Shown here piece by piece: positions 8,800 to 59,759 of a stretch of DNA of 64,000 nt. Every line of letters starts with the position of its first letter. Position 1 is the stretch's first letter. The stretch spans positions 307,810-371,809 of the forward strand of contig DATKGN010000004.1 in assembly GCA_035510735.1 (NCBI GenBank), written 5' to 3'. Below the pieces are notes generated by a model. It searched no databases. It worked only from the letters and a program-made list of their open reading frames with translations, and had not been told where the DNA came from. The stretch comes from Patescibacteria group bacterium (GTDB taxonomy: Bacteria > Patescibacteriota > Microgenomatia > UBA10105 > UBA927). Both the position numbers and the translations under genes were made by a program.

Positions 8800-8828
8800 T
8801 TGACATAAATTAGCACTCGATGTATAGT
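8800..8828 (+). promoter_or_regulatory. Sigma-70-type promoter of the hrcA operon (TTGACA-N17-TATAGT)
   Basis: TTGACA at 8800-8805, 17-nt spacer, TATAGT at 8823-8828. Overlaps the CIRCE-like element. Confidence 0.6.
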
Positions 8829-8836
8829 ATTGCTAA
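8810..8836 (+). promoter_or_regulatory. CIRCE-like HrcA operator with a degenerate right arm
   Basis: TTAGCACTC-N9-TATTGCTAA versus consensus TTAGCACTC-N9-GAGTGCTAA. The left arm is perfect; the right arm matches only TGCTAA. Confidence 0.6.
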
Positions 8837-12234: not shown

Positions 12235-13152
12235 ATGAATGAAGTTCGTGTAGCAGAAGTTCCAGCTGCAGAAAGACATCTTGATATGCCGATTGAGGTG
12301 TATTTAATGAATGCTGCGACGAACGACGAACGAATAGTTATGGAAAATACATTCGCCTTCTGGCAGCCATTTAAGAATCCTTACACGGATGAGATAAAGG
12401 ATTCAGGATCAACAGTAGGATTGGAGAGTAGGGCCGGAGGTATGTGCGTGCATCTAATGGATGGGTATTTCGTTACCCCGAAACACGTGAGTGACGCGTA
12501 TTCTTTATCGGATGACTCTGAAGTAGAATTCAGAGATAGGATTCCAGATGTGATTTTTGATATTTATGGAACCAAACGGAATATCCAACCAGATTTAATA
12601 TTTTCTAATCCTCGATATGCATTGAGAACATTCGATGATTTCGTGATTTTTAGGGTTGATCCTATTAAATATCCGTGGATACAACAATTACCACGATACC
12701 CTATTATTTCGAATCACAAAGTTGCTGTGGGTCGTTCAATTTGCGTGGGAGTACCTGATCTTATATTTCCGTTGGGGTTTGATGAGAAAGGTGATCCATT
12801 AGTTGTTGATAACGTGGGACGTCAACTGACGGTTCGTTTGAAGGAAAACGACGTACCAATTTGGAAAAGAAAAGTTTCTATTGAAGAAGCACGTCTCCAT
12901 GCTCGAGCAGGAGAGGAGTATCCCTCTTGGTTTTTTGGTGTGCCAATGACAAGAGAAGCAAAAGGATATACAAAAGGACCCTTCATTAATAATGAGATGT
13001 TTATTAGTAAAGGATATAGCGGGGGACCTTTAATTCATAATGGTGTATTGCTTGGGATGGTTGTCGAACCTGATGTTGAATTTGGGAGCGGTGGGGGAGG
13101 ATATGCGGTTGATATTAAATTAGTGTTTAAGACGTTGCGCGGATTGATGTAG
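12235..13152 (+). CDS. Cytoplasmic trypsin-like (S1/chymotrypsin-fold) serine protease-like protein inserted between dnaK and dnaJ
   Basis: GYSGGPLIHNGVLLGMVV matches the GDSGGP catalytic-serine motif. TPKHV is His-box-like. DDFVIFRVD could supply the Asp. No signal peptide. Confidence 0.5.
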   Translation: MNEVRVAEVPAAERHLDMPIEVYLMNAATNDERIVMENTFAFWQPFKNPYTDEIKDSGSTVGLESRAGGMCVHLMDGYFVTPKHVSDAYSLSDDSEVEFRDRIPDVIFDIYGTKRNIQPDLIFSNPRYALRTFDDFVIFRVDPIKYPWIQQLPRYPIISNHKVAVGRSICVGVPDLIFPLGFDEKGDPLVVDNVGRQLTVRLKENDVPIWKRKVSIEEARLHARAGEEYPSWFFGVPMTREAKGYTKGPFINNEMFISKGYSGGPLIHNGVLLGMVVEPDVEFGSGGGGYAVDIKLVFKTLRGLM

Positions 13153-21975: not shown

Positions 21976-22048
21976 TCTTGTAAATGTTCCCGTGATGATG
22001 TAAAATACCATCTACTGGAGCGCACAATTGCTCCTTTTTCGATATCAT

Positions 22049-22465
22049 ATGCCGAAAGCAAAAATAGTGAAAAAGCAAGCGGAAAAGAAAGTAGCAAAAA
22101 AAGTGAGCCCGAAAGCAAAGCCGGCCGCAAAAGTTACAGCGGATAAAACCGTCAAAGCGGTAAAAGGTAAAAAAGAATCAAAAAAGCCGGAAGTGGTAGC
22201 CGAACCAGCCGAAGATAAAAAAGACGTCATTTCCCAATATCAGGTAAAAGAGGGAGATACCGGGAGTCCTGAAGTACAGGTCGCACTTCTCACGAAACGG
22301 ATCGAAAAATTAGTTCTCCATCTCAAGAGTAATCCGGCAGATAATCATTCACGTCGAGGACTTTTGGGAATCGTCAGCAAGCGCCGCAGGCTTATCAATT
22401 ATCTGGAAAAGAAGGACGTAAAGCGATACAAAGCTATTGCGACGAAATTGGGCCTCGGAAAATAA
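22049..22465 (+). CDS. rpsO: 30S ribosomal protein S15 with Lys/Ala-rich N-terminal extension
   Basis: C-terminal 85 aa match S15 ([34 protein letters not shown]). ~55-aa KKxxAKK-rich extension. Confidence 0.85.
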
Positions 22466-22589: not shown

Positions 22590-24779
22590 GTGTTATATAT
22601 GTCAAAAAAATCTATTGTTAAGAAATCCATTGATATTGGCGGTCGTACACTTTCGCTTGAAATCGGCAGGTTTGCGGAGCAGGCGAACGCCGCAGTGATC
22701 GCCCAATACGGTGATACGATGGTCCTCGCGACCGTTGTCGCATCACAAAAAGAGACGACTCTTGATTATTTTCCGCTGAGCGTCGAATATGTGGAGCGGC
22801 TTTACGCCGGTGGCCGCATTAAAGGCTCACGGTGGGTCAAACGCGAAGGCCGACCGACTGATGATGCCGTACTTGCCGGTCGTGTGATTGACCGTTCAAT
22901 CAGGCCGCTTTTTCCCAAAACGTATAAACACGATGTACAGGTTATCATTACCGTTTTGTCTGTTGATGGTGTCAACGATCCTGATGTATTAGGACTCGTT
23001 GCGACATCAGCCGCGATTTCGGCTTCCTCGATTCCGTGGAATGGGCCGGTTGCAGCTGTCCGTATGGGATATGTGCATTCGGAAAAAGATGACGGGACCT
23101 ATCTCGTCAACCCGACGATAACGGAACAGGGGACGAGCGAATTTGATTTTGTCGTTTCTTCCACACGCGAAAAAGTGCTCATGCTTGAAGGCGGATTCTG
23201 TGAAACGCCGGAGGATGTGACCTACGAAGCGGTTATTAAAGCCAAAGAAGCAAATGCAAAAATTATTAAACTCATTGATGAGTTGACGAGTGAGGTCGGG
23301 AAAACGAAAGAAAAGGCTCCCGTCGCATCAGAGGCTGATGAGCTGAAAAAGAAAATCGCCAAAGACTATAAAAAAGAGATGGAAGCGGCATTTGCCAAAA
23401 AAGCGGAAAAAGAATTCGGGGGCTCCGAAGTCGCCGAACTTGCCAAGATAATTGTTGAGGCATATGGAACAGAGTATACCCTGAAGGCTGTCGAAGAAGC
23501 GCTTGATGCGTTATTTAAGAAAAAAGTCCGTGAAGACATTCTTGAAAAAGGAAAACGGTTTGACGGGAGAAAAATAGATGAGATCCGGCCTTTGAGTTGC
23601 GAAGTCGGACTATTGCCCCGTACTCACGGGAGTGCGATATTTGCGCGTGGACAGACACAGGTTCTAACCGTTGCGACGCTTGGCACGCCGTCTCTTGAAC
23701 AGCTTATCGAAAGTCCTGCGGGCGAAGAATCCAAACGGTATATTCACCATTACAGCATGCCGCCGTATTCGGTCGGTGAAACGGGCCGCGTCGGAACGCC
23801 GAGCCGCCGTGAGATCGGTCACGGGGCGCTCGCAGAACGTGCTCTTTTGGCTGTCGTACCGCCCGATGATGTGTTTCCGTATACGATCCGCCTGGTAAGT
23901 GAAGTGATGTCCAGTAACGGTTCAACATCCATGGCATCAACCTGCGGTTCAACGCTCGCGCTTATGGATGCCGGAGTTCCTATCAAGGAACCGGTTGCCG
24001 GTATTTCGATCGGCCTTATGACCGGTCCGAAGAAAAACGTGTTACTTACCGACATCATGGGAATTGAGGATTTTGCCGGAGACATGGATTTTAAAGTTGC
24101 CGGTACGAAAAACGGCATTACGGCAATCCAATTGGACGTCAAAATAGACGGACTGACTAACGAGATAATTAAAGAAACATTCGTTCTGGCAAAAAAAGCG
24201 CGGATGAAGATTCTGGAGAAAATGCTCTCTGTTCTTAAGGAACCGAGAAAATCATTGTCTCTCTATGCGCCGAAAGTTCAGGTTGTAAAGATTCCGACGG
24301 AAAAAATCGGTGAGGTCATTGGTCCGGGCGGTAAGGTTATCCGTATGATCATGGCGGCCACAACGACAACGGTTGACGTCGATGACGACGGATCGGTGGT
24401 CATCTCCGGAACGGACAGCGATAATGTAAATAAAGCAATCGCATGGGTTCAGGGTCTTACCCGCGACGTCCAGGTCGGAGAAGAATTTGAAGGCGAAGTG
24501 AAGCGGATATTGCCCTTTGGCGCATTCGTCGAAATATTACCGGGTAAAGAGGGTATGGTCCACGTGTCGCAGATGTCAACCGGATTTGTAAACAGACCGG
24601 AAGATATCGTTGAACTTGGTAAAAAAGTAAAAGTACGCGTGATGGAAATTGATGATCAGCACCGTGTTAACCTCTCCATGTTGTTCGGTGAGGATGCCAA
24701 GAAGGCTCCGCCGCGACGTGAAGGTGGAGGCGGCGACAGACCACGCCGGCCGTTTAACCGCGGACCAAGAAGATATTAA
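22590..24779 (+). CDS. pnp: Polyribonucleotide nucleotidyltransferase (PNPase)
   Basis: Two RNase PH domains, KH and S1 domains, basic RG-rich C-terminal tail. Confidence 0.95.
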   Translation: MLYMSKKSIVKKSIDIGGRTLSLEIGRFAEQANAAVIAQYGDTMVLATVVASQKETTLDYFPLSVEYVERLYAGGRIKGSRWVKREGRPTDDAVLAGRVIDRSIRPLFPKTYKHDVQVIITVLSVDGVNDPDVLGLVATSAAISASSIPWNGPVAAVRMGYVHSEKDDGTYLVNPTITEQGTSEFDFVVSSTREKVLMLEGGFCETPEDVTYEAVIKAKEANAKIIKLIDELTSEVGKTKEKAPVASEADELKKKIAKDYKKEMEAAFAKKAEKEFGGSEVAELAKIIVEAYGTEYTLKAVEEALDALFKKKVREDILEKGKRFDGRKIDEIRPLSCEVGLLPRTHGSAIFARGQTQVLTVATLGTPSLEQLIESPAGEESKRYIHHYSMPPYSVGETGRVGTPSRREIGHGALAERALLAVVPPDDVFPYTIRLVSEVMSSNGSTSMASTCGSTLALMDAGVPIKEPVAGISIGLMTGPKKNVLLTDIMGIEDFAGDMDFKVAGTKNGITAIQLDVKIDGLTNEIIKETFVLAKKARMKILEKMLSVLKEPRKSLSLYAPKVQVVKIPTEKIGEVIGPGGKVIRMIMAATTTTVDVDDDGSVVISGTDSDNVNKAIAWVQGLTRDVQVGEEFEGEVKRILPFGAFVEILPGKEGMVHVSQMSTGFVNRPEDIVELGKKVKVRVMEIDDQHRVNLSMLFGEDAKKAPPRREGGGGDRPRRPFNRGPRRY

Positions 24780-25001: not shown

Positions 25002-26108
25002 ATGTCAAAACTGTCCGATGATATTTCGATGCTTCGCAAAAAGACTGCCGAAGCCAAGCTTCCCCCGGATTTGGAATCACGACTCCTAAGCGATCTTGAA
25101 GAAATCAGCCGTTTGGAAAATGATATCGCCGCGCGCGTCCACATAGAACAGATGCTTCGGTATATTGATTGGGTTGTAAATTTGCCCTGGAACATACGTA
25201 CGGAAGATATTCTCGACATCAATAGGGCAAAAGAGTTTTTGGAAAAACATCATTACGGGCTCCAACCGGTGAAAGACAGAATTTTGGAATACCTTTCGGT
25301 CCTCAAACTTAACCGCGACCGGTGGAAAAAAGAAGAAGAAGCGGCAAAATCAGATAACGAGCTTAAGGATGCACGACTCTCCCACGCTATGTTAGCCCGA
25401 AGAGCTCCGATTCTTTGTCTTGTTGGACTGGTCGGAACCGGGAAAACGACGCTTGCCAAATCGATTGCCGAGGCCATGGGCAGGCGGTTTGTCCGTATAC
25501 CGTTCGGAGGGATGAGCGACGCGTTGGATCTTCGCGGACAATCACGCGTGCGGCCGGACGCTGAGATCGGATTGGTCCTGAAGGGTCTGCGGTACGCTGG
25601 AAGTAAAAATCCGGTCATCCTCCTTGATGAGATTGACCGTGTGGCAGAGCATGCGCGGGGCGACATCATGGGTGTGTTGGTTGAATTACTTGACCCGGAA
25701 CAAAACGCCGCATTTACCGATCATTTTATCGATTACCCGTTTGATCTGTCGGAAGCCATGTTTATCGCGACCGCCAACAACACGACGCATATCGCCACAG
25801 CCGTTCTTGACCGCTTGGAACCGATCCAGATGCCTTCTTATACCGATGAAGAGAAGATAACGATCGCAAAAAATTACGTCCTACCGGCACTTATGCGCGA
25901 GTCAGGGCTTACCGAAGATAATCTGAAAATCGATGATGCTATTTGGACAAAAATCGCGCGACCCCTAGGGTATGATGCGGGTATCCGGAGTCTTGAGCGG
26001 ACCATCAACACGCTCTGCCGCAAGGTGGCGCGGATGATCGTTGAAGGCAAAGCAACCCAGGTGACGGTCAATGAAGGAAATATTAAGGAATATATAGAAA
26101 GTTATTGA
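25002..26108 (+). CDS. Lon-like AAA+ ATPase lacking both the N-terminal LON domain and the C-terminal S16 protease domain
   Basis: HHYGLQPVKDRILEYLSV then Walker A GLVGTGKTTLAKSIA and Walker B VILLDEIDRV, typical of the Lon ATPase module. ORF ends 95 bp before rnj with no protease domain in any frame. Confidence 0.7.
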   Translation: MSKLSDDISMLRKKTAEAKLPPDLESRLLSDLEEISRLENDIAARVHIEQMLRYIDWVVNLPWNIRTEDILDINRAKEFLEKHHYGLQPVKDRILEYLSVLKLNRDRWKKEEEAAKSDNELKDARLSHAMLARRAPILCLVGLVGTGKTTLAKSIAEAMGRRFVRIPFGGMSDALDLRGQSRVRPDAEIGLVLKGLRYAGSKNPVILLDEIDRVAEHARGDIMGVLVELLDPEQNAAFTDHFIDYPFDLSEAMFIATANNTTHIATAVLDRLEPIQMPSYTDEEKITIAKNYVLPALMRESGLTEDNLKIDDAIWTKIARPLGYDAGIRSLERTINTLCRKVARMIVEGKATQVTVNEGNIKEYIESY

Positions 26109-26120
26109 TACCTAAATGTC

Positions 26121-26156
26121 ATTCCGGGCTTGACCCGGAATCCATCTTATTTTTTC
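26121..26156 (+). terminator. Rho-independent terminator (ATTCCGGG-CTTGA-CCCGGAAT ... TTTTTT)
   Basis: Perfect 8-bp stem followed within 10 nt by a T-run, 13 nt after the Lon-like stop. Confidence 0.55.
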
Positions 26157-26165
26157 AAAAACTGG

Positions 26166-26187
26166 ATCCCGGCTCGTTGGCCGGGAT
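26166..26187 (+). promoter_or_regulatory. Second hairpin (ATCCCGGC-TCGTTG-GCCGGGAT) in the rnj leader
   Basis: Perfect 8-bp stem 15 nt upstream of the rnj start. Confidence 0.4.
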
Positions 26188-26202
26188 GACAAAAAAGAAA
26201 TT

Positions 26203-27972
26203 ATGAGATTTAATCCATTTGCCAGACGGCAAAATCAGGTTTTTACCGGTTCTTCACAGAGCCGCCTGCCTACGCAGGCAGGGCGGACGATGCAGTCAGG
26301 CAAAGAATCAATACGCCTTATACCGCTTGGAGGCACCGGCAACGTGACAAAAAACATGTTCGTGTATGAATACCGCTATGACGGGAAGCTCAAGGATATT
26401 CTGATTGTCGACTGCGGCATCGGGTTTCCGGATCCTGAAATGTTCGGCGTCGACTTGGTGTTACCGGATGTGCGGTACCTCGAAAATAAACGGAATCTCA
26501 TTCGGGGACTAGTCTTCACTCACGGACATGATGATCATATCGGCGGGATTCCGCATCTCTATCCGAAATTAGGTAAAGTTCCCATGTGGGGGACGACGCT
26601 GACCGCCGCTTTCACCAACATTAAGCTCAAAGAACGGAATATAAAGAACAGAGTTACTCCTGTCGATTTTTCCCAGACACTTCGCATCGGACCGTTTACC
26701 GTTTCCTTCGTTCGCGTGACGCACTCCGTGCCCGATGCCGCCAATCTTATCATCCAAACCCCTATTGGCACCTTTTATCACGGCAGCGATTTTAAATTTG
26801 ATTTTCACCCATTAGACGGGAAACTATCGGAATTGTATAAAATTAACGAAGCGGGTCGAAAAGGTGTGCTTTGTTTGTTAACCGATTCATTGGGGAGTGA
26901 GCGCCCGGGATTTACGCCGTCGGAGCAGATTGTAGGAGTCACGCTTGATAAAGAGATAACGCTCTGCAGCGGCAAATGTATTTTTACGACACAGTCCAGT
27001 AACATTTCCCGTATCCAGCTTGCTATCGAAATAGCGCTTAAACACGGCCGGAAGATTGCCATTTTTGGCCGGAGTATGGATCATAATATTGAAGAAGCGG
27101 TTAACTTGGGATACATGCGGTTTCCGAGGGAATCGATTATTCTTGACCGGGATTTGAAGCGTGTGCCGCCGACCAAACAGTTCCTTATTGTTGCGGGAGC
27201 TCAAGGCCAGGAAGGCTCTGCATTGTGGCGGATTGCCAACGATGATCATAAATTTGTAAGTATTGATGACGGTGATACGGTCGTATTTTCGGCGGACCCG
27301 ATCCCAGGAAGTGAAAACAATGTCAACGCGGTTATTGAACAGCTATACCGGAAGGGTGCGCGCGTTGCGTATTCGGACATCATGGAAGATCTTCATGTCT
27401 CGGGTCACGGAAGCCAGGGAGACCTTATGCTCATGCTCTCCGCAATCGGCCCCAAATACATTTTCCCGATGGGAGGCACCTACCGGCACATTATGCAGTA
27501 CCGGCGGCTTGCGATGGATCTCGGATATAATAAGCGCGATATTTTAACTCCCGAAGAGGGGCAGGTATTGGAATTCAAAAGAGATGCGCCGCCGCGGGTT
27601 GTCGAAACCATTAATTTGGAAAACGTCATGATTGACGGCTTGGGGATCGGCGATGTCGGGGACGTCGTCCTCCGGGACCGGCAGACGATCGCAACCGAAG
27701 GAATTGTTGTCGTTGTCGTACCGATTGAAAAGTCGAGCGGACGCGTGACTGCTGAACCCGATATTATCTCGCGCGGATTTGTCTATATTAAAGAATCCGG
27801 TGACTTGCTCAATAAAGCGAAACGGGTGGTGAATGAGTCCCTGCGGCTTAAAAAAGGCAGGATGGTTGACTGGCATTTTTTCCGGAAAAACGTCGAAGAA
27901 AACCTCGGGAGATTTCTCCTTAAGGAGACCGGCCGCACGCCACTCATAGTTCCTGTGATCGTGGAAGTATAA
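26203..27972 (+). CDS. rnj: Ribonuclease J (metallo-beta-lactamase/beta-CASP)
   Basis: IRLIPLGGTGNVTKNM, HTHGHDDHIGG and HVSGH motifs. The true start may be the internal ATG at 26290. Confidence 0.9.
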   Translation: MRFNPFARRQNQVFTGSSQSRLPTQAGRTMQSGKESIRLIPLGGTGNVTKNMFVYEYRYDGKLKDILIVDCGIGFPDPEMFGVDLVLPDVRYLENKRNLIRGLVFTHGHDDHIGGIPHLYPKLGKVPMWGTTLTAAFTNIKLKERNIKNRVTPVDFSQTLRIGPFTVSFVRVTHSVPDAANLIIQTPIGTFYHGSDFKFDFHPLDGKLSELYKINEAGRKGVLCLLTDSLGSERPGFTPSEQIVGVTLDKEITLCSGKCIFTTQSSNISRIQLAIEIALKHGRKIAIFGRSMDHNIEEAVNLGYMRFPRESIILDRDLKRVPPTKQFLIVAGAQGQEGSALWRIANDDHKFVSIDDGDTVVFSADPIPGSENNVNAVIEQLYRKGARVAYSDIMEDLHVSGHGSQGDLMLMLSAIGPKYIFPMGGTYRHIMQYRRLAMDLGYNKRDILTPEEGQVLEFKRDAPPRVVETINLENVMIDGLGIGDVGDVVLRDRQTIATEGIVVVVVPIEKSSGRVTAEPDIISRGFVYIKESGDLLNKAKRVVNESLRLKKGRMVDWHFFRKNVEENLGRFLLKETGRTPLIVPVIVEV

Positions 27973-52482: not shown

Positions 52483-55155
52483 TTAAAAAAGTTTGAGTTC
52501 CGCGATCATATTATCTTCCGATTTCCGTATCGTAAAATTCCGTTTCTTCATCATCGCGAGCATTTTTTCATTATCCGGGAGTACATACGCGTAGATTTTT
52601 TGAATCCTCCGGTCTTTCGCAATTTCCAGAATATAATCCATAAGCAAGCTTCCCAAACCCTCATGCTGCCACGGGTCGGCGATCACGATGGCAAATTCCG
52701 CGTCCTGCCCATACGGGTCGGCGATAAGCCTCGTAACCCCCAACATTTGTTTTTTTCCTAGATGGTTCTCCTCGGCGATAATTGCAATTTCCCGGTCATA
52801 ATCGATCTGCGTATACCGGATAAGGAGTTGGTGCGTGATATCTTTAATCCGCGTGAAGAACCGGAAACGCTGGGTTTCTTCGGAAAAATGGGTGAACATT
52901 TCGGCTTCCATTGGTTCATCCTCGGGCCGTATGGGTCGGAGTGTGATGTCACCACCGGATTTCAGCGTCACCTGTTTAATATATTTAGAAGGATAGGGAG
53001 AGATAACCAGATGGCTGTACGGGCGGATAGGCGAGTGGACAATCGCTTCGTCCAAAATGATTTTCGCATCAAGAACCATGCCGCCTTTCTCATCTATGCC
53101 GAAGGGATTGATATCGATTTCCTTGATTTCAGGAAAATCCATGACAAGGTAGGAAAATTTATATAACAAAAACTGAATTTCGCTTATGTCAACGCCGGGT
53201 GCGCCACGGAAACCAGAGAGGAGTTTATAGATTTTTGTTTTGGTGATCATCCGCATGGCAAGGGCCATATTGAGCGGCGGAAGTCCCACCGTGACATCGT
53301 TATATAGTTCGACGGCAATCCCCCCCATACCAAACACAATTGCCGGTCCGAAGATTCTGTCTTTCTTGCAACCGATAAACAGTTCATATTTTTTCGCGTA
53401 CATGGGCTCGACTAGTACGCCGGTAATTTCGGCGCTGGGCGTATGGGTTTTTGCAGAATTGATAATGGTGTCATAGGCGGTTTTTGCTTCGTCTTTTGAC
53501 CGAATATTGAGAATGACGCCGCCGACATCAATTTTATGGAGAATGTTCGGCGATATGATTTTCATGGCGACAGAAAATCCGAGAGATGCGGCTTTTTCTG
53601 CTGCATCATCCCGGGATGTAGATAAAAACGAGAGGGGGATCGGCATGTCGTAATTTGCAAGCATTTGTTTGGCTTCCAGTTCCGTCAGGACATACCGTTC
53701 CTCGGAAACGGCGTGTTTAATAATTTCGCGATTTAGTTCCGTTTTCGGTGTAAATGCGTGGGGCGTTGTTGCGGGCGTCTCATAGAGAAGCTCGACGTTT
53801 TTTGCATAGGTGTAAAGGTTGATAAAGCTCTGAATGGCTTTTTCCGGAGTTTCATAGGTCGGGATGTGCGCTTTCATTAACAGGTTTTTTCCTTCCAGAA
53901 CATCGTCTTCGCCCAAAAATGACGTCAATATGGTTTTCTGATTTCCTGCCGCTATATCAATAATTTCTTTTGCGACCGATGTCGGGTGGGTCATGGCCTG
54001 CGGGGTCAGAAGAGTAAGTACTGCATCAACTGACGGATCGTGAAGAACCGTTTCAATCGTCTGTTTATACCGGAGTGCATCTGCGTCTCCCAAGACGTCG
54101 ACCGGATTTCCGTGGCTCCAGGCTGAGGGCAGTTTGGCATCAAGCGCACTCATCGTATCTTTTGAAAGTTGTGCAAGTTCGCCGCTATTCTCCATTAAAA
54201 AGTCCGTGGCGATTACCCCCGGTCCGCCGGCATTGGTAACAATTGCCAGTTTATTGCCGGTCGGCCGGCGCTGAGTGGCCAAAACCTCTGCACAGTCAAA
54301 TAGCTCACCAATCGTATTCACCCGGAGCATGCCGGCTCTGGCAAACGCTGCGTTAAATATTTCATCATTGCCCGCAAGACTTCCGGTGTGTGAATGTGCG
54401 GCCCGTGCGCCTTCCTGACTTTTTCCTGCTTTGAGTGCAATGATCGGTTTCGTCCGTGCATACGCCCGTGTGGCGCTTAAAAATTTTCGTGCATTATCCA
54501 ACGATTCCATGTAAAGAAGAATGCTGCTGGTCTCCGGATCGCTTCCGAAATAATCGATGAGGTCATGAAAACCGACGTTAAGCATCTCTCCGACTGACAC
54601 AAAGTAGCTGAATCCGACATGTTGTTTGACTGACCAGTCAAGAACCGCCGTCCCCAGAGCCCCGCTTTGGGAGATGAATGCGATGCCGCCGGGTCTTGCG
54701 GTTTTATTGGCGAAGGTTATGTTCAGGGACTTCGTCGGTCTGATGAATCCCAAACAATTCGGCCCCAGGACCGTGATGTCATGGGTTTTTGCAATTTGTC
54801 CGATTTTATCAAACAGTGTTTCACCATTGGTCCCTGATTCCTTGAAACCGGAAGAGATGATAATCGCACTGTGTATATTTTTTTTGCCGCAAGACTCAAG
54901 AACATCAGGAACCATAGCGGCGGGGAGTGCGATAACGGCAAGGTCCACTTGTTCCGGCACGTCATCGATACTTTTATATGATTTACTTCCGAAGACGCTT
55001 TCCGCGTTGGGGTTCACGGGATATATGCGTCCCTGAAAGCCGTCATAAATAAGATTTTTCATGATGGCATAGCCGGTGTGCTCCTTTTTATTGGACGCGC
55101 CGATAACGGCGATCGTTGTCGGATTAAAAAGTCTTTTCAGTCCGTTTCTTATCAT
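52483..55155 (-). CDS. Pat-like protein acetyltransferase: NDP-forming acyl-CoA synthetase (CoA-binding + ATP-grasp) fused to C-terminal GNAT domain
   Basis: N-terminal CoA-binding IAVIGAS fold, succinyl-CoA-synthetase-like and ATP-grasp domains and a C-terminal GNAT (LMDYILEIAKDRRIQKIYAYVLPDNEKML). 890 aa. Confidence 0.85.
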   Translation of the reverse strand: MIRNGLKRLFNPTTIAVIGASNKKEHTGYAIMKNLIYDGFQGRIYPVNPNAESVFGSKSYKSIDDVPEQVDLAVIALPAAMVPDVLESCGKKNIHSAIIISSGFKESGTNGETLFDKIGQIAKTHDITVLGPNCLGFIRPTKSLNITFANKTARPGGIAFISQSGALGTAVLDWSVKQHVGFSYFVSVGEMLNVGFHDLIDYFGSDPETSSILLYMESLDNARKFLSATRAYARTKPIIALKAGKSQEGARAAHSHTGSLAGNDEIFNAAFARAGMLRVNTIGELFDCAEVLATQRRPTGNKLAIVTNAGGPGVIATDFLMENSGELAQLSKDTMSALDAKLPSAWSHGNPVDVLGDADALRYKQTIETVLHDPSVDAVLTLLTPQAMTHPTSVAKEIIDIAAGNQKTILTSFLGEDDVLEGKNLLMKAHIPTYETPEKAIQSFINLYTYAKNVELLYETPATTPHAFTPKTELNREIIKHAVSEERYVLTELEAKQMLANYDMPIPLSFLSTSRDDAAEKAASLGFSVAMKIISPNILHKIDVGGVILNIRSKDEAKTAYDTIINSAKTHTPSAEITGVLVEPMYAKKYELFIGCKKDRIFGPAIVFGMGGIAVELYNDVTVGLPPLNMALAMRMITKTKIYKLLSGFRGAPGVDISEIQFLLYKFSYLVMDFPEIKEIDINPFGIDEKGGMVLDAKIILDEAIVHSPIRPYSHLVISPYPSKYIKQVTLKSGGDITLRPIRPEDEPMEAEMFTHFSEETQRFRFFTRIKDITHQLLIRYTQIDYDREIAIIAEENHLGKKQMLGVTRLIADPYGQDAEFAIVIADPWQHEGLGSLLMDYILEIAKDRRIQKIYAYVLPDNEKMLAMMKKRNFTIRKSEDNMIAELKLF

Positions 55156-55161
55156 ACTGTT

Positions 55162-56118
55162 TTAGATATGCCAATAGGGCTTGAGGTTTGCGATGAGCGC
55201 TGCAAGATCGGTTTCAAACGCTTCTATGGTCAAAATAGTCGACTCCGTTGCATCTTCAGAAAAACGTTTCGGAGCCCCGTTTATTCCGTCGAGAAAATTA
55301 TAGAAACATTTCGGTAAAAAGTCTGTATTGTATCCGCCTTCAAGTGTTGCATATACATGACTGAATTTCGCATGAAGGAGCGACCCAAGTTCATAATAAC
55401 AATTGACGCTTAGTTCCAAATCCAACAACGGGTCAGATTTGTGGCCGTCAAATCCGGCAGAGACGCCAACCACATCAGGCGCAAATTGCACTGCGACCGG
55501 CATGAGTTCCTTTACCGCGCGAAGGTATATGTCGTCACCCGATTTCGGGGGAAGCGGCACATTAACCGTGAACCCCAACCCTTTACCAACGCCGATTTCA
55601 TTGACGTTTCCTTTTTGGGGAAATGCGGGGAATTGATGGAGGGACCAATAAAGGACGCGGTCGGTATTATAAAAAATTTCCTCGGTCCCGTCTCCCAGGT
55701 GTCCGTCGAAATCAAAAATCAATACTTTTTTCCCGGCATTCACTAATTTCTGTGTTGAGATGGCGATATTATTAAACAAACAGAATCCGTGGCCGAAATC
55801 GCGATGAGCGTGATGTCCCGGCGGCCTCACGACCGCAAAACCATCAATCTCAGAAGCCTTGATTGTTGCAGTAACGGCATAGAGAGCAGCGTTCCAGCTC
55901 CCCGGCGAAGTTTGCGTATCGGCATCTAGGGGCATTCCGTTTTGGCAGAATTGTTTTACCTTTTCGATATATTCCGTCGTGTGGATGAGGGTGAGCGGTT
56001 CTTCAGTTAACGGCAGGTCAGTGATAGGGAGATTTCCTAAAGAGAGGATACGGTTTTTGTTTTCCGGATGATTACCGGTTTCGTGTTCTAATACGATCGG
56101 ATGATAAATGATATCCAT
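55162..56118 (-). CDS. Histone deacetylase-family (AcuC/HDAC-like) deacetylase
   Basis: VRPPGHHA and GGYN signature motifs. 318 aa. Confidence 0.85.
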   Translation of the reverse strand: MDIIYHPIVLEHETGNHPENKNRILSLGNLPITDLPLTEEPLTLIHTTEYIEKVKQFCQNGMPLDADTQTSPGSWNAALYAVTATIKASEIDGFAVVRPPGHHAHRDFGHGFCLFNNIAISTQKLVNAGKKVLIFDFDGHLGDGTEEIFYNTDRVLYWSLHQFPAFPQKGNVNEIGVGKGLGFTVNVPLPPKSGDDIYLRAVKELMPVAVQFAPDVVGVSAGFDGHKSDPLLDLELSVNCYYELGSLLHAKFSHVYATLEGGYNTDFLPKCFYNFLDGINGAPKRFSEDATESTILTIEAFETDLAALIANLKPYWHI

Positions 56119-58100: not shown

Positions 58101-59759
58101 ATGAGTATTGAAATATTGGGTGATTCACATCAAAGTGAGACTACAAGATTGCAATTGGGAGAATATTTTACTCCGCAAACACTTCACATTCCTGAGGGTG
58201 ATATTCCTTTAACGAAGGAATCCATAGTTCCCACATTCGAAGGATTGTTAGCTCAAAATCAACGCGTGCTGTTACTCGGAGAGCCGGGTTCGGGAAAATC
58301 CACGCTTCTTCGCGAGATGTTGCACGCATATCACACCACCGTGAGTAACTCCTATGATACGGTCGTCTATTTGCCACTTCGGGCGTTTGAAGAAAATAAC
58401 GAATCGTTCATAGATTTTTTCCAGCAAAAAAAGACTACTCAACACGGCAGCGAACCGGAACATGTATTGTGGATACTCGATGGCATGGATGAGGTCAAAG
58501 ACCCCGCCCATATGGCCTCTCTTATGGAAGAAATAACCATTTCGCGTCCGGAGGATCATGTGATGGTTGCAGCACGGCCGATCGTGTCTGAAGAGGGATT
58601 TTTTAGAGAATATATTCCTGTCACGATACGTCCTTTTGATATCGAACAGATCTTATCATTCGCGCAGTTGTATAGCAGGCGGGTGTATGGAGACAATTAT
58701 ATTGTCCCTTTGCCGGGTACTACAAAAGATGGGCGGCCACTTACAGTCCCTTTGTTCGTAGAGACGGTTGCGAAGGACGCATTCGATAACAACAAGTCCA
58801 TTAAATATCTTTTATCATCTCCGATAAGTCTTCCCTATATTATCGATATACTTGCGGATGGTTATTTATTCCTTCCGTACAGGCGATCAGAATTATTTAG
58901 AGATATTATCGATAATTGTGATGAACATAGATGGGCAAAGAAAGATCCGCAATCGTTCGTCTCAGTTTTTGGGGATCCGGATCGGGAGTCCTATAGGGAC
59001 CTGTATGAATCAGATAAAGAATTTCTGGAATCTGAGTCACAGGAACTTTCGGTTCGCCTGAGAATGATACGGTTTTATAAATATATTGCCATCCACATGA
59101 TGACTGATTTCGGCCAGTCGGTAGTGACGAGAGATCAAATGAAAGAGGTTTTAGCAGGCTATTTTTCGGAACTATTCCCCCAAGACGTTATGGCCGAAGA
59201 GTCGGCTTCTTCTGATTTCTCTCTGGATCGCGCGGAAAAGTTTTTACAGGCAGCCGACAGCGGTCTGCCGCTGATCATAAAACTTGAAGAGAACGGTTAT
59301 GGGTTTGCGCACAGGTCTCTGTTTGAATTTTTAATAGCACAAGACTTGCTTACCCGGAGTGGCGACCCCGAAGAGGCAGTTTCTTTTTGTAAAGAGCATG
59401 ATTTATTATTCTCTCTTCACTGGCGCGAAACGATGCGGATGTTTATGGAGTTACAAAATCAAGCCATGTATGACAAAGAGCTGAAAGAGTTTTTTCATTT
59501 GATTTTACTAAATTCCTCTGAAGCGCCTTACGAATCCGTACTTGCAGCTGCAAGTTTTGTTACACACGATATATGCATTGGGTCGTTTAGTCCGTTAATT
59601 AAAGAAATATATACTGCACTTGCGGATGCGATTTCCGACCTAAAAGATAATAGTGATACAGAGAGTCAAATTATCCTTTATCGGCTTCGGAAACAAGAAC
59701 AGAGGTTGTTTATCATGATCGCGGACAAGGGACTTCAAAAAGATATATTTAGGAGATGA
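58101..59759 (+). CDS. STAND-class P-loop NTPase (NACHT-like)
   Basis: Walker A LLLGEPGSGKSTLL, Walker B VLWILDGMDEV (DGxDE, typical of NACHT) and a helical C-terminal region. 552 aa. Confidence 0.6.
   Translation: MSIEILGDSHQSETTRLQLGEYFTPQTLHIPEGDIPLTKESIVPTFEGLLAQNQRVLLLGEPGSGKSTLLREMLHAYHTTVSNSYDTVVYLPLRAFEENNESFIDFFQQKKTTQHGSEPEHVLWILDGMDEVKDPAHMASLMEEITISRPEDHVMVAARPIVSEEGFFREYIPVTIRPFDIEQILSFAQLYSRRVYGDNYIVPLPGTTKDGRPLTVPLFVETVAKDAFDNNKSIKYLLSSPISLPYIIDILADGYLFLPYRRSELFRDIIDNCDEHRWAKKDPQSFVSVFGDPDRESYRDLYESDKEFLESESQELSVRLRMIRFYKYIAIHMMTDFGQSVVTRDQMKEVLAGYFSELFPQDVMAEESASSDFSLDRAEKFLQAADSGLPLIIKLEENGYGFAHRSLFEFLIAQDLLTRSGDPEEAVSFCKEHDLLFSLHWRETMRMFMELQNQAMYDKELKEFFHLILLNSSEAPYESVLAAASFVTHDICIGSFSPLIKEIYTALADAISDLKDNSDTESQIILYRLRKQEQRLFIMIADKGLQKDIFRR

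Follow-up and report, generated by a model that had tools for sequence, protein, structure and literature searches.

A stand-alone Lon-type ATPase gene

The stretch of DNA analysed here, referred to as the window, comprises 64,000 nucleotides from a Patescibacteria group bacterium (assembly GCA_035510735.1, contig DATKGN010000004.1, positions 307,810 to 371,809 of the forward strand). At positions 25002-26108, on the + strand, it carries a gene with an ATG start that encodes a 368-residue AAA+ ATPase of the Lon type, standing alone and without a protease domain. This ATPase, its family and its possible function are the subject of this report. The gene and the features of its product are as follows.

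25002..26108, + strand: stand-alone Lon-type AAA+ ATPase gene, complete with stop codon (open reading frame (ORF) list; Pfam AAA and Lon_lid; TIGR00763 positions 252-575; AlphaFold2 and Foldseek)
25002..25181, + strand: N-terminal three-helix bundle, residues 1-60, equivalent to LonA NTD-3H or the C-terminal part of HI(CC) (aligned with Lon of E. coli and B. subtilis; model)
25251..25298, + strand: pre-Walker segment HYGLQPVKDRILEYLS, residues 84-99, common to LonA (alignment)
25314..25400, + strand: insert or linker, residues 105-133, that precedes the nucleotide-binding domain and varies between lineages (unaligned to LonA)
25425..25448, + strand: Walker A GLVGTGKT, residues 142-149, which reads GPPGVGKT in LonA (alignment)
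25533..25571, + strand: remodelled pore loop 1 RGQSRVRPDAEIG, residues 178-190 (alignment to LonA)
25614..25631, + strand: Walker B VILLDE, residues 205-210 (D209 and E210 invariant)
25692..25751, + strand: pre-sensor-1 beta-hairpin region DPEQN...DHFIDYPFDLS, residues 231-250 (alignment)
25776..25814, + strand: sensor-1 N259 (25776-25778) to arginine finger R271 (25812-25814) (invariant in the family and LonA)
25899..26054, + strand: Lon-type lid, the small AAA+ subdomain, residues 300-351, with sensor-2 R329 at 25986-25988 (Pfam Lon_lid; R329 invariant)
26088..26105, + strand: conserved C-terminal tail EYIESY-COOH, residues 363-368, with an aromatic end (C-termini of relatives)

Pfam assigned the AAA domain to residues 138-275 and Lon_lid to residues 300-351, and neither LON_substr_bdg nor Lon_C had a match in the 368-residue protein. 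The NCBIfam model for Lon, TIGR00763 (lon), aligned its positions 252-575 of 795 with residues 6-357 of the ATPase at 323 bits, below its cut-off of 608 because two thirds of the model are missing. The score for NF008053 was 257 bits against a cut-off of 891. The best non-Lon NCBIfam model reached about 27 bits and the ClpX model 17 bits, compared with 323 for lon, and no curated NCBIfam model specific to a protease-less Lon-type family was found. The region of LonA that the protein covers consists of the three-helix bundle, the AAA+ core and the Lon lid, and the chain ends 17 residues past the Lon_lid match.

Comparison with the PDB gave B. subtilis LonA (3m6a) as the top match, at 1e-79, and the best matches were all LonA or LONP1. 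Sequence identity to the LonA AAA+ module is 36-45%, and the pre-Walker stretch of the ATPase, HYGLQPVKDRILEYL, aligns residue for residue to the LonA sequences HHGLEKVKERILEYL and HYGLERVKDRILEYL. An AlphaFold2 monomer model, built on 36 family sequences, had a pLDDT (predicted local distance difference test) of 88.3 and a pTM (predicted template modelling score) of 0.80. Residues 2-17, 22-38 and 42-59 are predicted to form the helices of the N-terminal bundle, and the insert at residues 105-133, whose length varies in the family, has the lowest pLDDT (59-79). When searched with this model, Foldseek returned only Lon AAA+ modules; the match closest to it in extent was 6n2i, a fragment of E. 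coli Lon covering residues 235-584, with a TM-score (template modelling score) of 0.89 normalised to the target.

The ATPase is an AAA+ module of the Lon clade that begins and ends neatly at the domain boundaries. An earlier note on this DNA, made from the letters and their translations, had described a Lon ATPase module without the LON N-domain and the S16 protease domain, a pre-Walker segment characteristic of Lon and an end after the alpha-helical lid. The Pfam, TIGR00763, PDB and Foldseek results bear out the domain content, the residue-for-residue alignment to LonA confirms the pre-Walker segment, and the distance from the Lon_lid match to the last residue agrees with the described end.

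Conserved catalytic motifs and a remodelled pore loop

Residue correspondences were taken from an alignment to Lon and follow the Y. pestis / E. coli numbering in Shin et al. (PMC7239648). Invariant in the ATPase family are the Walker A residues K148 and T149 (K148 corresponds to Lon K362), the Walker B residues D209 and E210, sensor-1 N259 (Lon N473), the trans arginine finger R271 (Lon R484) and sensor-2 R329 (Lon R542), as are H84 and K91 of the pre-Walker segment. The bridging glutamate E233 (Lon E447) is kept. So are the coupling positions F242 and D244 of the pre-sensor-1 hairpin (Lon Y456 and E458), within the family pattern DPEQN...DH[FY]xDxPxDLS, and Y54 and W57 (Lon Y294 and W297), with which they dock in the three-helix bundle. 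The roles of Lon Y294 and W297 are those given in PMC7239648 and PMC6722904, and those of the other mapped residues come from PMC7239648. The catalytic set of the HCLR clade, comprising Walker A and B, sensor-1, arginine finger, sensor-2 and pre-sensor-1 beta-hairpin, is present in full.

Pore loop 1 follows a different pattern. In Lon, Y398 and I399 of this loop form the substrate-gripping 'pincer' (PMC7239648); R184 and P185 sit at these positions in the ATPase. Across 58 LonA sequences the loop reads RGHRRTY[VI]GAMPG, with H, R, T and Y 100% conserved, whereas among 47 diverse family members the commonest residue accounts for only 30% at the Tyr position and 23% at the Thr position. Conservation in the same 47 members reaches 72% for P185, 79% for D186 and 94% for E188. 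On this pattern, selection maintains the nucleotide engine and its allosteric wiring but not the substrate-pulling aromatic paddle. The pore has probably turned polar and acidic, and the change in pore loop 1, as read from the alignment, argues against classical threading of polypeptide into a protease.

The C-terminus is also conserved. The last residue is Tyr, Trp or Phe in 215 of the 226 family members listed, and 191 of these aromatic-ended proteins finish exactly 42 residues past the sensor-2 motif, with tails such as EF[VI]ESY and [EDQ]FLP[TS]W. A second subfamily has a conserved end of its own, G-x-[LVF]-S, instead.

Distribution, selection and origin of the family

Homologue searches cover the top 120 to 150 matches listed. 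The best 120 database clusters listed are all 358-380 residues long and 74-100% identical to the ATPase, and a profile search added about 100 further relatives at 52-63% identity. The 226 relatives listed are 342-444 residues long, and Lon_C was found in none of them in the precomputed Pfam annotation. Their names refer to Gottesman-, Shapiro-, Roizman- and Levybacteria and to 'Microgenomates/Patescibacteria group'. In a library clustered at 50% identity, about 19 more short clusters (343-669 residues) share the same diagnostic features; the extra length of these distant clusters consists of low-complexity Gln/Pro-rich tails and the variable insert before Walker A, with no added domains. As a separate matter of record keeping, the entries behind L008, L009, L011, L012, L014 and L016 are titled 'uncultured Gammaproteobacteria' despite a typical candidate phyla radiation (CPR) gene block; they are GTDB-representative metagenome-assembled genomes and look mislabelled.

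The ratio of nonsynonymous to synonymous substitution rates (dN/dS) of the ATPase gene was 0.033 in comparison with a 94%-identical relative, a pair in which dS approaches saturation (about 1.5); for these two genomes pnp gave a ratio of 0.057 and rnj one of 0.049. Two still closer relatives agree, with a dN/dS of 0.01. In cross-genome comparisons, the amino-acid identity of the ATPase tracks that of PNPase, FtsK and NusA and lies above that of IF-2 and RNase J. A simple neighbour-joining tree with Kimura distances and 30 bootstrap replicates recovered 47 diverse family members as monophyletic with respect to 50 LonA AAA+ modules (bootstrap 30/30). These sequence comparisons show a family of strongly constrained descendants of the LonA ATPase module that are widespread in Patescibacteria.

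The earlier note had assigned the protein to Lon and had allowed for two ways in which its proposal might fail, a recent truncation or pseudogene and homology to a different AAA+ clade. Neither objection holds: every relative listed is intact, of matching length and without Lon_C, and the homology is to Lon only. A different AAA+ clade was rejected on the score of 323 bits for lon against at most 28 for any other family, together with Foldseek matches that were all Lon.

Genomic neighbourhood

The immediate neighbours of the ATPase gene are listed below.

22590..24779, + strand: pnp (polynucleotide phosphorylase), conserved upstream neighbour (Pfam; synteny)
26109..26202, no strand assigned: spacer to rnj, 94 nt, with a T-run and two hairpins in inverted orientation to each other, at 26118-26141 and 26166-26190 (sequence; terminator-like matches)
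26203..27972, + strand: rnj (RNase J), conserved downstream neighbour (Pfam; synteny)

Within the window the genes are arranged in the order nusA-infB-DHH-rpsO-pnp-ATPase-rnj, followed by typA on the opposite strand, ftsK, a helix-turn-helix (HTH) gene and alaS; an hrcA-grpE-dnaK-(ORF)-dnaJ cluster lies upstream of the nusA-rnj block. The order rpsO-pnp-ATPase-rnj-ftsK is found repeatedly in Microgenomates-type genomes, both complete and draft, even where identity of the ATPase has fallen to about 40-50%, and either pnp-ATPase-rnj or ATPase-(udg)-rnj is kept in more than 30 loci. In several lineages 5-12 nt separate the ATPase stop codon from the start of rnj, or the two overlap. The udg gene encodes a family-4 uracil-DNA-glycosylase-like protein of about 200 residues and often lies directly 3' of the ATPase gene, before rnj, although the lineage of the window lacks it there. 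It directly follows the ATPase gene at loci L004, L015, L017, L020, L113-L118, L120, L127 and L128, and in the distant member L020 the pairing occurs with neither pnp nor rnj nearby.

The arrangement is not universal. Genes other than udg occasionally stand between the ATPase gene and rnj (L015, L093), rnj is absent at locus L122, and there is no pnp or rnj near the second subfamily (L094-L112) or near loci L005, L010, L016, L020 and L090. At L010 (9476-11017) and L016 (9566-11020), ATPases that are about 48-53% identical are encoded divergently from groES-groEL, with intergenic regions of about 90-150 bp. The neighbours of L094-L105 are glyA, thyX and dcd and a convergent VirB4-like/PrgI cluster, and a search for conserved neighbours in the second subfamily yielded only glyA, thyX, dcd, the VirB4-like ATPase and PrgI, with no functional clue. 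Because the block holds unrelated genes and other loci differ, we take the linkage to pnp and rnj as co-expression within a stretch of conserved synteny, which hints at a functional link without establishing one.

Terminator-like matches were found on both strands of the spacer that separates the ATPase gene from rnj. Its hairpins, GTCATTCCGGGCTTGACCCGGAAT at 26118-26141 and ATCCCGGCTCGTTGGCCGGGATGAC at 26166-26190, are similar to each other and mutually inverted around a T/A-rich centre, and no second copy of the first was found within the 64-kb window. About 89 nt of the spacer are a lineage-specific insertion that is lacking at L088, L089 and L001, where rnj begins 5-12 nt past the stop codon. 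The terminator described in the earlier note is thus real as a feature of this sequence, a 94-nt spacer with a hairpin and then a T-run, but it belongs to an insertion that the closest relatives do not have; the spacer could be a small palindromic mobile or repetitive extragenic palindromic (REP)-like element. The same note had held that the protease domain is not frameshifted nearby, and here it proved right: the next ORF is RNase J by Pfam, and tblastn with the LonA N- and P-domains found no match across the 64-kb window, nor beside any of the family members examined. The same queries detect both domains flanking genuine LonA loci.

Regulatory and other contexts were considered for the gene and set aside. 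A CIRCE-like (controlling inverted repeat of chaperone expression) repeat, TTAGCACTC-N9-tatTGCTAA, with 2 mismatches, lies at the hrcA start (8810-8836) and is the sole such site in the window, which is consistent with HrcA autoregulation of the hrcA-grpE-dnaK operon. No CIRCE was found upstream of the ATPase gene or in the intergenic regions between groES and the ATPase gene at L010 and L016, and HrcA/CIRCE heat-shock control of the ATPase gene was rejected, the only CIRCE-like site being the one before hrcA. PADLOC gave only weak generic P-loop matches to the ATPase (best TRIP13, 28 bits) in a context of housekeeping genes, and a role in a defence system, as a Lon-like or AAA+ protein such as BrxL, was rejected on the weakness of these matches. 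Rfam reported no family at gathering score anywhere in the 64 kb, and no tRNA, rRNA, riboswitch or leader was detected; a structured RNA in the flanks of the ATPase gene was rejected on the lack of any match at the gathering threshold in the window.

Two further observations concern other genes of the window. Ribosomal protein S15, encoded at 22028-22465 on the + strand, is 145 residues long from its predicted start and has a Lys/Ala-rich N-terminal extension of about 60 residues before an S15 Pfam match at 64-143; S15 measures 120-137 residues in relatives and the usual 89 residues in a more distant lineage (L091). At 52483-56118 (- strand) and 58101-59759 (+ strand), an 890-residue fusion of an ADP-forming acyl-CoA synthetase and a GNAT acetyltransferase adjoins a histone-deacetylase-family gene, with a NACHT-type STAND NTPase just before rpoB. 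The fusion and the histone-deacetylase-family gene possibly form a protein acetylation/deacetylation pair.

Search for a protease partner

The ORF at 12235-13152 (+ strand, 305 residues), between dnaK and dnaJ, contains motifs in the order His, Asp, Ser (TPKHV, DDFVIFRVD and GYSGGPL), and the earlier note had named this trypsin-like gene of the dnaK operon as a candidate partner of the ATPase. The proposal did not survive. The ORF has no match in Pfam or the PDB, and its sole match in a word-index search of 5.8 billion clusters is an identical 'hypothetical protein [Patescibacteria group bacterium]'. In relatives that carry the ATPase, dnaJ directly follows dnaK and no counterpart of the ORF is present. 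Because it is an ORFan that is absent from relatives of a family found in hundreds of genomes, it cannot be a conserved partner, and it was rejected as such.

The search was not confined to this candidate. Among the ORFs of at least 150 residues in the window, none has an S16, ClpP, HslV or proteasome domain. Nor was a LonC-like sequence or peptidase gene found in the 8-10 kb or so around each family locus examined, and no peptidase is a recurrent neighbour.

Proposed function and alternatives

The ATPase would be expected to assemble into a ring, since the trans-acting arginine finger is invariant, and to hydrolyse ATP, since all catalytic and allosteric motifs are intact. With the N-terminal recognition domain and the S16 chamber gone, it would no longer thread unfolded polypeptide into a protease. 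The Tyr/Ile pincer has given way to a variable residue and the conserved motif Pro-Asp-Ala-Glu, a change that would make the pore polar and acidic. Its ATP cycle may then serve a non-degradative task, such as remodelling, chaperone-like holding and release, or regulation of a partner, and the protein would be expressed along with pnp and rnj from a block of core housekeeping genes. Our preferred, tentative reading, to which we assign a little less than an even chance, is that the ATPase is a non-proteolytic, ATP-driven machine with a remodelling, chaperone-like or regulatory role.

Several points weigh against this proposal. Ring assembly without the protease domain is an assumption. A minority of family members have Phe or Tyr at or adjoining the old pore-loop Tyr position, and some gripping ability may therefore persist. 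The conserved terminal aromatic, at its fixed position, resembles the docking tails with which other AAA+ unfoldases engage partner rings, and a trans partner, perhaps a peptidase, may exist. In addition, full-text searches of the literature turned up no account of protease-less Lon proteins as a family, nor any of Lon in CPR.

The similarity to docking tails leads to an alternative in which the ATPase is one half of a two-component protease: the ring would dock by its C-terminal aromatic tail onto a separate peptidase ring, which could be a stand-alone S16, HslV-like, ClpP-like or other ring, and would activate or feed it in the manner of HslU and ClpX. These two proteins share the HCLR clade with Lon, the ATPase engine and the NTD-3H entry bundle are kept, and the aromatic end at a fixed distance from sensor-2, or the distinct G-x-[LVF]-S end of the second subfamily, would suit a docking function. 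A terminal aromatic may, however, merely pack on the lid. The earlier note had likewise raised an unfoldase or chaperone partner of a separate protease as one possibility, beside a regulatory ATPase, and the idea of an unfoldase feeding a protease is weakened by the loss of the pore-loop-1 aromatic needed for translocation, at a position that is now unconstrained, and by the lack of a conserved peptidase neighbour, with no peptidase gene in the window or in the 8-10 kb around the family loci examined and the only proposed candidate an ORFan. We consider this arrangement unlikely. The neighbourhood suggests instead an accessory ATPase of RNA decay, co-transcribed with PNPase and RNase J and remodelling them or their ribonucleoprotein substrates. 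The recurrence of the pnp and rnj linkage down to about 40-50% identity of the ATPase, the very short or overlapping junctions with rnj and the DHH (NrnA-like) gene in the same block all favour such a role. The block also holds the unrelated udg, ftsK, HTH gene, alaS, nusA and infB, however, and so looks like small-genome synteny; udg or other genes often split the ATPase gene from rnj, which L122 lacks altogether; and the loci without pnp and rnj have groESL, thyX/glyA or a VirB4-like gene as neighbours. An acidic pore (D186, E188) would also be ill-suited to RNA, and we regard a dedicated role in RNA decay as quite improbable. A more general form of both ideas, in which the Lon motor has been re-used in CPR as the ATPase of a two-part machine, either docked by its C-terminal aromatic on an unrelated ring or acting as the energy-dependent part of a minimal RNase J/PNPase RNA-decay complex, also seems to us rather unlikely; the docking version, if true, would be the first natural 'split' Lon system.

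Decay is the remaining explanation. The gene would then be a remnant of a full-length lon, whether as a pseudogene, a recent truncation or an assembly artefact, and the only observation in its favour is that two of the three LonA regions are missing. Boundaries are identical in hundreds of relatives from independent assemblies, dN/dS lies at 0.01-0.03, the family is monophyletic and the flanks hold no LonN or LonC remnants, and on these grounds the explanation was rejected as extremely improbable.

The family has consequences for how Lon is understood and annotated. Reviews describe every Lon as one polypeptide that joins an ATPase to a protease domain (PMC9569914). The ATPase family is a natural counter-example, a Lon motor under housekeeping-level selection without protease, recognition domain or gripping tyrosine. 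It offers a natural test of what a Lon-type ring is capable of when it does not thread substrate into a chamber. As a conserved, near-universal gene of Microgenomates-type genomes, it may be relevant to protein and RNA quality control in ultra-small cells. It also carries a warning for annotation. The family is named 'AAA family ATPase' by NCBI and 'ATP-dependent Lon protease' by IMG/JGI, and because of the IMG label, reconstructions based on KEGG Orthology (KO) will wrongly credit these CPR genomes with Lon proteolysis; function- or KO-based surveys will overcount it in CPR/Patescibacteria.

Comparison with known systems

The closest relative is LonA, whose ATPase is the same in fold, three-helix bundle, Walker A and B, sensor-1, arginine finger, sensor-2, pre-sensor-1 hairpin and Lon-type lid. 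LonA has in addition an N-terminal, PUA-like substrate-binding domain with a long coiled-coil helix and an S16 Ser-Lys protease domain (TIGR00763, MEROPS S16), all of which the ATPase lacks. Where pore loop 1 of LonA reads HRRTY[VI]GAMPG and its Walker A begins GPPG, the family has QSRxxPDAE[IP]G and GL(V/Q)G, and it adds the variable insert before the nucleotide-binding domain and the conserved aromatic C-terminus. Of the five LonA features tested, the ATPase has the Lon-type AAA+ core with lid and lacks the N-domain, the S16 domain, the pore-loop Tyr and a score above the curated cut-off. Because these four of the five defining features fail, it should not be filed as a Lon protease.

The boundaries of the natural ATPase are equal to those of the proteolytic fragment 235-584 of E. 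coli Lon (PDB 6N2I), which packs in the crystal as a hexameric open ring (PMC6722904).

The other Lon classes fit no better. LonB has a transmembrane insertion in its AAA+ domain and LonC a degenerate ATPase, and both have a protease domain. The ATPase belongs to none of LonB, LonC and LonBA: it lacks a protease domain, its motifs are intact and its model predicts no transmembrane-type insertion. LonC of Meiothermus taiwanensis is described as a Lon-like protease without ATP-powered unfolding activity (PMC3391209). LonC is likewise a degenerate derivative of Lon that has abandoned one of the two activities normally coupled there, and it is the mirror image of the present family: LonC keeps the protease and has a dead ATPase-like domain, whereas the family keeps a seemingly live ATPase and has no protease.

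Among the database matches P0122-P0145, many proteins of 900-1400 residues combine one C-terminal Lon_C with a tandem array of two or three Lon-type AAA+ modules that each have a Lon lid; some of the modules have degenerate pore loops, and one often carries RGHNRTW. We know of no description of such multi-AAA+ Lon proteases. Their extra AAA+ modules resemble the ATPase family in having degenerate pore loops, but these proteins keep the C-terminal Lon_C and hold all modules in one chain.

HslU and ClpX are, like the ATPase, stand-alone AAA+ proteins of the HCLR clade with a pre-sensor-1 hairpin, and they dock on the separate HslV and ClpP. The extreme C-terminal tail of HslU activates HslV, and the conserved C-terminus of the ATPase family is reminiscent of it. 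HslU and ClpX keep the aromatic GYVG pore loop, which the ATPase family does not have.

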